Assembly (NCBI RefSeq): GCF_041248615.1
Contig: NZ_CP158426.1
Length of the DNA: 64,000 nt
From: Escherichia coli
GTDB taxonomy: Bacteria > Pseudomonadota > Gammaproteobacteria > Enterobacterales > Enterobacteriaceae
Direction: 5' to 3' (one strand)
Each line of letters begins with the position of its first letter. Within the stretch, counting starts at the first letter, position 1. This document shows, in pieces, positions 31,325-37,991 of this stretch. Both the position numbers and the translations under genes were made by a program. The notes under the pieces are model-generated. The model was not told the origin of the DNA and searched no databases. It saw nothing but the letters and a program-made list of their open reading frames with translations.

Positions 31325-32880
<1,556 letters not shown>

Positions 32881-36061: not shown

Positions 36062-36355
36062 CTGATTAAACAGGGAAGTTTAATCTTTGCACGTTGCATA
36101 ACCTTTAATTATTCATATACATTGCTGTTATTACTTTTTATATAACCAACACCAATAATTAACCTTTCTTTTCTGTTTATATAGAGTGAGCACGGCTATT
36201 TATGTTATTTTAACAACTATTACTACCAAGCCCATTTATCTGGCTTATAAATTAAAATTAATTATTTAATTGAGAAATGGTTAGGGAGAACCTACATGGC
36301 CATAAGCATCAAGGGTGTTAATACCGGTGTTATTCGCAAGAGCAATAATTTCATT

Positions 36356-36364
36356 GCACTGGCG
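36356..36364. repeat. IS1 target-site duplication, left copy (GCACTGGCG)
   Basis: 9-bp sequence immediately flanking the IS1 end at 36365, identical to 37133-37141. Confidence 0.9.
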
Positions 36365-36379
36365 GGTAATGACTCCAAC

Positions 36380-36883
36380 TTATTGATAGTGTTTTATGTT
36401 CAGATAATGCCCGATGACTTTGTCATGCAGCTCCACCGATTTTGAGAACGACAGCGACTTCCGTCCCAGCCGTGCCAGGTGCTGCCTCAGATTCAGGTTA
36501 TGCCGCTCAATTCGCTGCGTATATCGCTTGCTGATTACGTGCAGCTTTCCCTTCAGGCGGGATTCATACAGCGGCCAGCCATCCGTCATCCATATCACCA
36601 CGTCAAAGGGTGACAGCAGGCTCATAAGACGCCCCAGCGTCGCCATAGTGCGTTCACCGAATACGTGCGCAACAACCGTCTTCCGGAGCCTGTCATACGC
36701 GTAAAACAGCCAGCGCTGGCGCGATTTAGCCCCGACGTATCCCCACTGTTCGTCCATTTCCGCGCAGACGATGACGTCACTGCCCGGCTGTATGCGCGAG
36801 GTTACCGACTGCGGCCTGAGTTTTTTAAATGGCGGAAAATCGTGTTGAGGCCAACGCCCATAATGCGGGCGGTTGCCCGGCAT
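36380..36883 (-). CDS. insB: IS1 InsB reading frame (167 aa; expressed as an InsAB' fusion by -1 frameshifting)
   Basis: ORF translation [64 protein letters not shown]... matches IS1 InsB. Confidence 0.95.
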
Positions 36884-37077
36884 CCAACGCCATTCATGGC
36901 CATATCAATGATTTTCTGGTGCGTACCGGGTTGAGAAGCGGTGTAAGTGAACTGCAGTTGCCATGTTTTACGGCAGTGAGAGCAGAGATAGCGCTGATGT
37001 CCGGCAGTGCTTTTGCCGTTACGCACCACCCCGTCAGTAGCTGAACAGGAGGGACAGCTGATAGAAACAGAAGCCAC
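36802..37077 (-). CDS. insA: IS1 InsA (91 aa) transposition inhibitor / N-terminal part of the transposase
   Basis: ORF translation [43 protein letters not shown]... matches IS1 InsA (zinc-finger plus HTH). Confidence 0.95.
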
Positions 37078-37132
37078 TGGAGCACCTCAAAAACACCATC
37101 ATACACTAAATCAGTAAGTTGGCAGCATCACC

Positions 37133-37141
37133 GCACTGGCG
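37133..37141. repeat. IS1 target-site duplication, right copy (GCACTGGCG)
   Basis: Identical 9 bp to 36356-36364, directly abutting the other IS1 end. Confidence 0.9.
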
Positions 37142-37991
37142 CTGAAAATTAAAGAGCCTCGCAATAAAGAATCGTTGTTCTTTCTGTCTGTCATGGAACT
37201 GCGCGACCTTCTGATTGCGCTGGAAAGCCGTTTGCATCAAAAGCATAAACTGGATGCTGCTGCACGCCTTCAGTATGAGCAAGCTCGCGATAAAGTCATT
37301 AAGAAAATGGCAGAAAATATCCCAGAAATTCTGGTTGATGAGCTTAAAAATGCCGATATTAATCGTCGGGTTAACACGCTGGAACTTACCGATAATCAGG
37401 GTGAAAATCTTACCTTCGTATTAACGCTACATGACGGTAGCAAATGTGAATTAGTCATCAATGAATTGCAGATTGAAATGCTGGCGCGAGCAATCATTCA
37501 TGCAATTAATAATGCGGAAATGCGTGAACTGGCATTACGTATTACCTCACTGTTAGATTTCCTACCGTTATACGATGTTGACTGCCAGGACAATGGCAAT
37601 CTGGAATATGACACCTATTCCCAACCGGAATGGAAACATAACTTGTTCAACCATTATCTGGCGGTGCTTTACCGCTTTAAAGATGAAAGTGGCAAAGAAC
37701 AATTTAGCGGCGCAGTGGTGAAAACGCGTGAAGCAACGCCGGGTAAAGAAGTGGAGGCGATCACTCGACGAATGCTTGATTTCAGCCCACGACTGAAAAA
37801 ACTCGCGGGTGTACCATGTCAGGTCTATGTTCGCACCGTAGCGGCAAATAACGCCCAACCGCTAACCCAGGATCAATGCTTACGCGCGCTACATCACTTA
37901 CGTGTTCAATCCACCAGCAAAACTGCACCACAGGCGAAATAATCCCATCTGTTTTACTACGAGGCTGGAAGTATCCAGCCTCTGGATCCCA

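Follow-up and report, generated by a model that had tools for sequence, protein, structure and literature searches.

Insertion sequences of the IS1 family are recognized by a length of about 768 bp, imperfect inverted repeats of about 23 bp that start with GGTRATG, the gene insA followed by the overlapping DDE frame insB', and a 9-bp duplication of the target. Classical hot spots of IS1 insertion, reportedly described by Zerbib in 1985 and by Gamas in 1987, are said to lie in AT-rich regions, and one of them, in pBR322, is said to be bound by IHF. IS1 also bounds ampC amplification units, which arise in the neighbourhood ampC-blc-sugE-ecnAB-efp-epmB-yjeJ-yjeI. Here, we describe an insertion of the same element in the same neighbourhood, in a window of Escherichia coli DNA (the whole stretch that was analysed, 64,000 nucleotides; all coordinates refer to it). 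We consider it highly probable that, in the lineage of strain NRZ14408, yjeJ was interrupted by the transposition of an intact IS1, with the gene most likely null and its loss most likely the neutral loss of a dispensable gene.

The element, which is IS1B-like, occupies positions 36365–37132 (768 bp) and carries insA and insB on the minus strand. Its left end, GGTAATGACTCC..., is IRR (36365–36387), and its right end, ...GGCAGCATCACC, is IRL (37110–37132); the inverted repeats GGTAATGACTCCAACTTATTGAT (left) and GGTGATGCTGCCAACTTACTGAT (right, reverse-complemented) agree at 18 of the 23 terminal positions. The insA gene (36802–37077, minus strand, 91 aa) encodes a zinc ribbon and a helix-turn-helix (Pfam PF03811 and PF12759) and is followed by the overlapping insB frame (36380–36883, minus strand), a 167-aa ORF with the DDE_Tnp_IS1 domain (Pfam PF03400); the ORFs also match the NCBIfam family transpos_IS1 (NF033558). 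The A6C slippery motif TTAAAAAAC at IS1 position 305 (36820–36828, minus strand) is the site of the programmed −1 frameshift, and a −1 slip simulated at this motif gives a predicted 232-aa InsAB' fusion. The RefSeq annotation of NZ_LT599825.1, made by PGAP, likewise contains an intact IS1B-family transposase with a programmed frameshift. A sigma-70-like promoter, CTGCCA-16-TATGAT (37098–37125, minus strand), lies in IRL and is directed into IS1, at a position that, from established IS1 biology, we take to be that of the insA promoter and to serve this function.

Compared with IS1A of K-12, the copy is identical at 760 of 768 positions (99.0%, 8 base differences). Its length, inverted repeats, insA/insB' arrangement with the A6C frameshift and 9-bp duplication are all like those of the K-12 isoforms IS1A and IS1B, with no structural difference, and IS1B-like is the name that RefSeq gives to the element here. 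Judged by its letters, then, the copy appears to have every feature for transposition intact. The initial annotation had placed an IS1 with intact insA and insB at exactly these positions, and the Pfam and NCBIfam domains bear this out.

Directly outside the element, the nonamer GCACTGGCG stands on both sides (36356–36364 on the left and 37133–37141 on the right), as had been claimed from the first reading. The direct repeat is exact over 9 bp and can be neither extended nor shifted, and a match of this length between two given positions would arise by chance with a probability of 4^-9, or about 4e-6. In K-12, GCACTGGCG occurs once, and yjeJ is continuous.

The insertion lies at the edge of the epmB–yjeJ intergenic spacer (36062–36295), whose GC content is 28.2% against 50.7% for the whole window. 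This is a short spacer haplotype, without the 160-bp REP/BIME-like block that is found in the spacer of K-12. The duplicated nonamer is itself GC-rich (7 of 9 positions), and the ±50 bp around the target have 39% GC; AT-richness is thus a property of the neighbourhood and not of the target nonamer. The earlier description of an AT-rich target segment therefore holds for the spacer and fails for the nine duplicated bases.

When the element and one copy of the repeat are removed, positions 36296–36364 and 37142–37942 join into a frame of 870 nt and 289 codons with no internal stop, in agreement with the initial annotation. The reconstructed protein matches the YjeJ-like Pfam family PF15922 over positions 1–283 of 283 (E = 2.1e-174, 579 bits, cutoff 27) and has the same sequence as WP_001008025.1 of E. 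coli 042, the DNA being one synonymous base apart. It differs from YjeJ of K-12 at 5 residues, and the N-terminus MAISIKGVNTGVIRKSNNFIALALKIKEPRNKES, on which the identification of the start had been made to depend, is common to both. The gene order efp-epmB-yjeJ-yjeI-groL is the same in K-12, 042 and NRZ14408, which places the reconstructed gene where yjeJ is expected.

IS1 thus entered yjeJ 69 bases from the start, after codon 23, and the duplicated target corresponds to yjeJ nt 61–69. The 5' fragment (36296–36364, plus strand) retains codons 1–23 and is continued by a chimeric ORF (36296–36445, plus strand) of 49 aa, in which the 23 YjeJ codons are followed by 26 codons from the IRR end of IS1 and a stop; the 25 IS-encoded codons counted originally are one too few. 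The 3' fragment (37142–37942, plus strand) holds codons 24–289 and the stop. It can be read in two ways, as the listed ORF 37175–37942 (TTG start, 255 aa) or as the RefSeq CDS 37127–37942 (ATC start, 271 aa). The listed ORF is the 3' remnant rather than an independent gene, as was proposed. As found, neither fragment alone is a full member of PF15922, and both halves of yjeJ, like IS1, are free of decay.

The empty site was surveyed in 5426 complete E. coli RefSeq genomes. Of these, 5373 have the 300-bp site without interruption, and in many, E. coli 042 among them, it matches at 100%; together with the continuous gene of K-12, this is the outcome foreseen for the comparison with other strains. 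A left junction matching in one piece at 100% was found in only one of the 5426 genomes, NZ_LT599825.1 of E. coli NRZ14408, which the title of Falgenhauer et al. 2017, quoted in PMC10790570, describes as a clinical isolate resistant to carbapenems and colistin. In public collections, the 49-aa chimeric peptide is found exactly as WP_257719570.1, and this peptide and the 271-aa remnant occur on 11–17 contigs. GCA_014863425.1 matches the window without a difference over 5150 bp, and in the draft GCA_020005525.1, both junction contigs are identical to the window. The interrupted allele therefore marks a clone that has been sampled more than once or re-sequenced.

A scan of JGI metagenomes for the right junction ACCGCACTGGCGCTGAAAATTAAAG gave 0 matches. 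A 22-kb search for relatives brought up no complete genome that is nearly identical, and the next best stood at 99.7%; the coverage figures of this search are inflated by nearby IS1 copies and set no bound on recency. The view that the insertion is recent is plausible in that decay is absent and a single complete genome carries the allele, and it is weakened by the presence of the allele in other assemblies. Since the allele recurs in this way and the site is a recurrent target (see below), the perfect duplication alone says little about age.

IS1 insertions in the vicinity were sought in complete genomes with chimeric queries of 150 bp of flank and 150 bp of IS1 end. About 47 complete genomes carry IS1 in yjeJ or in the AT-rich spacer upstream: about 24 have it inside yjeJ, in 17 combinations of position and orientation, and about 23 further ones have it in the spacer. 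Ten positions in yjeJ were verified in sequence (nt 69, 79, 89, 105, 109, 120, 309, 550, 562 and 621), with 9-bp duplications at 9 of the 10. As a control, the 5' part of ampC, searched in one orientation, gave 1 genome with IS1. The segment nt 69–120 accounts for 6 of the 17 combinations (binomial p ~0.0015), a statistic that goes with a single control gene and with positions that were in part deduced from how far joined BLAST pieces extend. Several long-span matches had suggested insertions near nt 690; these were rejected, as the joined pieces were reversed and the insertions lie in the spacer.

These data define an IS1 hot zone that runs through the 28%-GC epmB–yjeJ spacer and about 120 nt into yjeJ. 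The AT-rich target preference of IS1 invoked in the initial annotation is thereby supported at the population level, and the other interrupted alleles, in E. coli and Shigella, involve the same gene and the same element as the allele studied here. The locus resembles the classical hot spots in that insertions cluster beside a 28%-GC region and that the 9-bp target has G/C at both ends. A further likeness, to the IHF-bound hot spot, is a candidate IHF core with one mismatch, AATGAAATTATTG, at yjeJ nt 48–60 on the minus strand, which abuts the target; because such motifs occur about once per kb in the window, it is only a lead.

The nucleotide at which IS1 is joined to yjeJ in the window has been used elsewhere. 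Junctions between yjeJ nt 69 and an IS1 end were found in at least seven flank haplotypes on draft and metagenome contigs, one with a K-12-identical flank and another from a Shigella sonnei assembly. The adjoining end is IRR or IRL-like, so that both orientations are represented, and several IS1 end variants occur. The 042-like flank of NRZ14408 is unlike that of all other carriers found, and an SNP 22 bp upstream of the junction separates every other haplotype from it, so that these are independent insertions rather than one allele spread by recombination.

It should be noted that the peptide look-up behind these contigs was site-specific by construction and gives no preference of nt 69 over neighbouring nucleotides. 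With this in mind, we put forward only tentatively, and with more doubt than belief, that yjeJ nt 61–69 (GCACTGGCG), at the edge of the AT-rich spacer, is a precise, orientation-independent IS1 hot spot used independently in at least five to seven lineages, among them phylogroup-D-like E. coli, a K-12-identical background and Shigella sonnei. Its cause could be local nucleoprotein architecture, with bent DNA bound by IHF or H-NS. If such a hot spot exists, it would seed IS1 homology 3.5 kb from ampC and could ease IS1-mediated ampC amplification. The locus is in any case a convenient natural target for studying how IS1 chooses its sites, and in typing or phylogenetics the sharing of an IS1 position should not be read as common descent.

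For the insertion in the window, simple transposition remains the reading we hold with high confidence. By established IS1 biology, the InsAB' DDE transposase would have been made by −1 frameshifting at the A6C motif and would have attached the ends of IS1 where yjeJ was cut with a 9-bp stagger at nt 61–69, and gap repair would have produced the duplication of GCACTGGCG; only the end product is seen directly. The choice of site would reflect the regional hot zone, in which unrelated lineages have repeatedly acquired IS1 at this very nucleotide. We regard the loss of yjeJ as most likely neutral, neutrality being an assumption, and selection for the loss could be an alternative explanation of the recurrent insertions.

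Copies of insertion sequences are a classic source of misassembly, and the chromosome has about 8 IS1 ends, so that an element wrongly placed in yjeJ deserves mention; a misplacement would not yield a perfect 9-bp duplication, and the identical junctions in independent assemblies exclude it, so we give this reading practically no weight. Import of the interrupted allele by homologous recombination from a lineage with IS1 at the site, such as Shigella sonnei, would account for the same junction in S. sonnei and several E. coli backgrounds. It is very improbable, given that the flanks here are of the E. coli 042 type, with 1.9 kb of identity on the left and a single differing base in yjeJ on the right; the upstream SNP is present in every other haplotype, and the opposite orientations and different IS1 end variants show independent events. 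Somewhat more probable than these two, though still unlikely, is an adaptive insertion in this multidrug-resistant clinical isolate, in which either the loss of YjeJ was selected or an IS1 placed 3.5 kb from ampC (31747–32880) provided anchoring homology through which IS1 could mediate duplication or amplification of ampC under beta-lactam pressure. Such a role would fit the repeated, independent hits in yjeJ and in the spacer before it, several lineages having been hit at one and the same nucleotide, and the same-site contig with the K-12-identical flank (L022) would fit a laboratory-derived strain. In laboratory evolution under amoxicillin, moreover, ampC amplicons often start at the yjeJ/epmB spacer, and IS1 lies at amplicon junctions or ends (PMC12625342, PMC8430887). 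The 64-kb window, however, holds one IS1 copy, with no second copy bracketing a segment as in a composite transposon or an ampC amplification unit, and no duplicated ampC segment. Unlike the IS1-bounded ampC units, the locus has only this one IS1, with collinear flanks and a duplicated target, which is the signature of simple transposition and not of an amplification junction. The AT-rich target preference alone explains the recurrence without selection, and the authors who described the amplicons concluded against a fixed hot spot for the boundaries (PMC12625342).

The remaining alternative concerns the 3' piece, which might be a functional gene expressed independently from the IS1 end. RefSeq, which already displays the IS1B-like transposase and the 69-nt 5' pseudogene piece in NZ_LT599825.1, treats this piece as a non-pseudo CDS, the "YjeJ family protein" WP_192459808.1 of 271 aa, and the remnant ORF is indeed undamaged. 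IS1 ends reportedly contribute the −35 part of hybrid promoters (a finding credited to Prentki et al., 1986), and a weak hybrid promoter can be made out by eye from TTGGCA at 37119–37124, a 19-nt spacer and GAAAAT; this could give some transcription of the remnant. A 264-aa form of YjeJ annotated in E. albertii records (P0016) starts at residue 26, so an N-terminally shortened YjeJ may not be inert. Against this stand the start of WP_192459808.1, an ATC at 37127 that lies six bases inside IRL without a Shine–Dalgarno sequence, and the absence of 23 residues that are conserved in Escherichia and Citrobacter and covered by the Pfam model. A scan for sigma-70-like promoters found no outward promoter from IS1 of at least 9/12 quality, only the inward one in IRL. 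In other genomes with IS1 10–50 nt further into yjeJ, PGAP marks both halves as pseudogenes, so the intact call here is a length-threshold artefact. A functional remnant is accordingly quite improbable.

WP_192459808.1 is thus an annotation artefact and should be a pseudogene fragment. Since the remnant has neither the native promoter nor a usable start codon and is missing the conserved first 23 residues, the allele is, as far as can be read from the DNA, most likely null. The next gene, yjeI, is convergent, and no polar effect on downstream genes is therefore expected.

The feature is an ordinary IS1 knockout that public annotation already displays, and as a textbook insertion into a dispensable gene of a published genome it matters little in itself. 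What is mildly new is the mis-annotated remnant CDS, which is one practical point of the insertion, and the repeated independent use of the locus and of the exact nucleotide by IS1.

As for the protein itself, homologues of YjeJ are found essentially in Escherichia, Shigella, Citrobacter and relatives. Conservation between Escherichia and Citrobacter includes residues 1–27, which are predicted, in a region modelled with moderate confidence, to lie in a beta-hairpin of the N-terminal domain; the AlphaFold2 model as a whole is poor (mean pLDDT 57), with the C-terminal half below 50. Searches for a function gave no match in NCBIfam, no PADLOC family of anti-phage defence at E <= 0.1 and no sequence relative in the PDB better than E = 0.05, and Foldseek of the model against the PDB returned nothing significant, the best match being PUR-alpha repeats (E = 0.039, TM 0.21). 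A 255-aa cluster representative (P0018) was considered as the 3' remnant and rejected, since it comes from an unrelated contig and is a variant frameshifted at its C-terminus. In laboratory K-12, a yjeJ deletion replaced by bla has been used as a neutral linked marker (PMC10679819), which shows that yjeJ is dispensable in the laboratory.

The epmB–yjeJ spacer together with the first ~120 nt of yjeJ (window 36062–36420) is a landing zone that IS1 has used repeatedly. About 47 of the 5426 complete genomes carry IS1 in yjeJ or in this spacer, and the exact junction at yjeJ nt 69 was found in at least seven flank haplotypes, with IS1 in both orientations; its carriers include Shigella sonnei and one flank identical to that of K-12. 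The homologous loci compared on this point were the yjeJ regions L003–L007, L011–L014 and L019–L027.

Directly adjoining the 9-bp target of IS1 is a candidate IHF site on the minus strand, at nt 48–60 of the reconstructed yjeJ (window 36343–36355), whose sequence AATGAAATTATTG differs from the core consensus WATCAANNNNTTR by one mismatch. Since the window holds roughly one such one-mismatch core match per kb, the position of this one beside the target may be due to chance.

The spacers on both sides of yjeJ differ in length between strains. Relative to the window, K-12 (locus L008) has ~160 bp extra in the epmB–yjeJ spacer (against 36062–36080) and ~153 bp extra in the yjeJ–yjeI spacer (against 37943–37991), and from their sequence both blocks resemble palindromic units of the REP/BIME type (GCCGGATAAGGCG..., GCCTGATAAGCG...). 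A near-duplicate of TGATTAAAC(A/T)GGGAAGTT flanks the first of them on both sides; the window and E. coli 042 carry neither block.

In RefSeq, PGAP calls the yjeJ 3′ remnant of strain NRZ14408 an intact CDS of 271 aa (WP_192459808.1; window 37127–37942, NZ_LT599825.1 4840672–4841487), whereas the equivalent remnants of other genomes are flagged as pseudogenes. The start codon of this CDS is a non-canonical ATC lying within the IRL, the inverted repeat of IS1 at 37110–37132. For the YjeJ reconstructed by joining window 36296–36364 to 37142–37942, AlphaFold2 gave a poor model (mean pLDDT 57) of repeating units, each consisting of beta-strands followed by a helix. A Foldseek search with it returned no significant match, the best being PUR-alpha repeats (E = 0.039, TM 0.21), so that a PUR-alpha-like fold may serve as a lead only.

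Another allele was seen in E. coli 3PT (L011, NZ_CM137004.1), where IS1 lies at yjeJ nt 79 (locus positions 1461–2228). The lack of a target duplication and the annotation of just 504 nt of yjeJ beyond IS1 suggest an IS1-adjacent deletion or IS–IS recombination rather than a simple insertion. The control search with the 5′ part of ampC revealed one genome, strain S1-INA-02-B (NZ_CP145662.1 296572–296895), with IS1 at the frdD end/ampC promoter region, a position that could alter ampC expression. Many related ST405-like genomes (e.g., WCHEC96200 and strain 405) carry another IS1 no more than a few kb from the frd–ampC–groEL segment, and the 22-kb query was therefore “completed” by this neighbouring copy.
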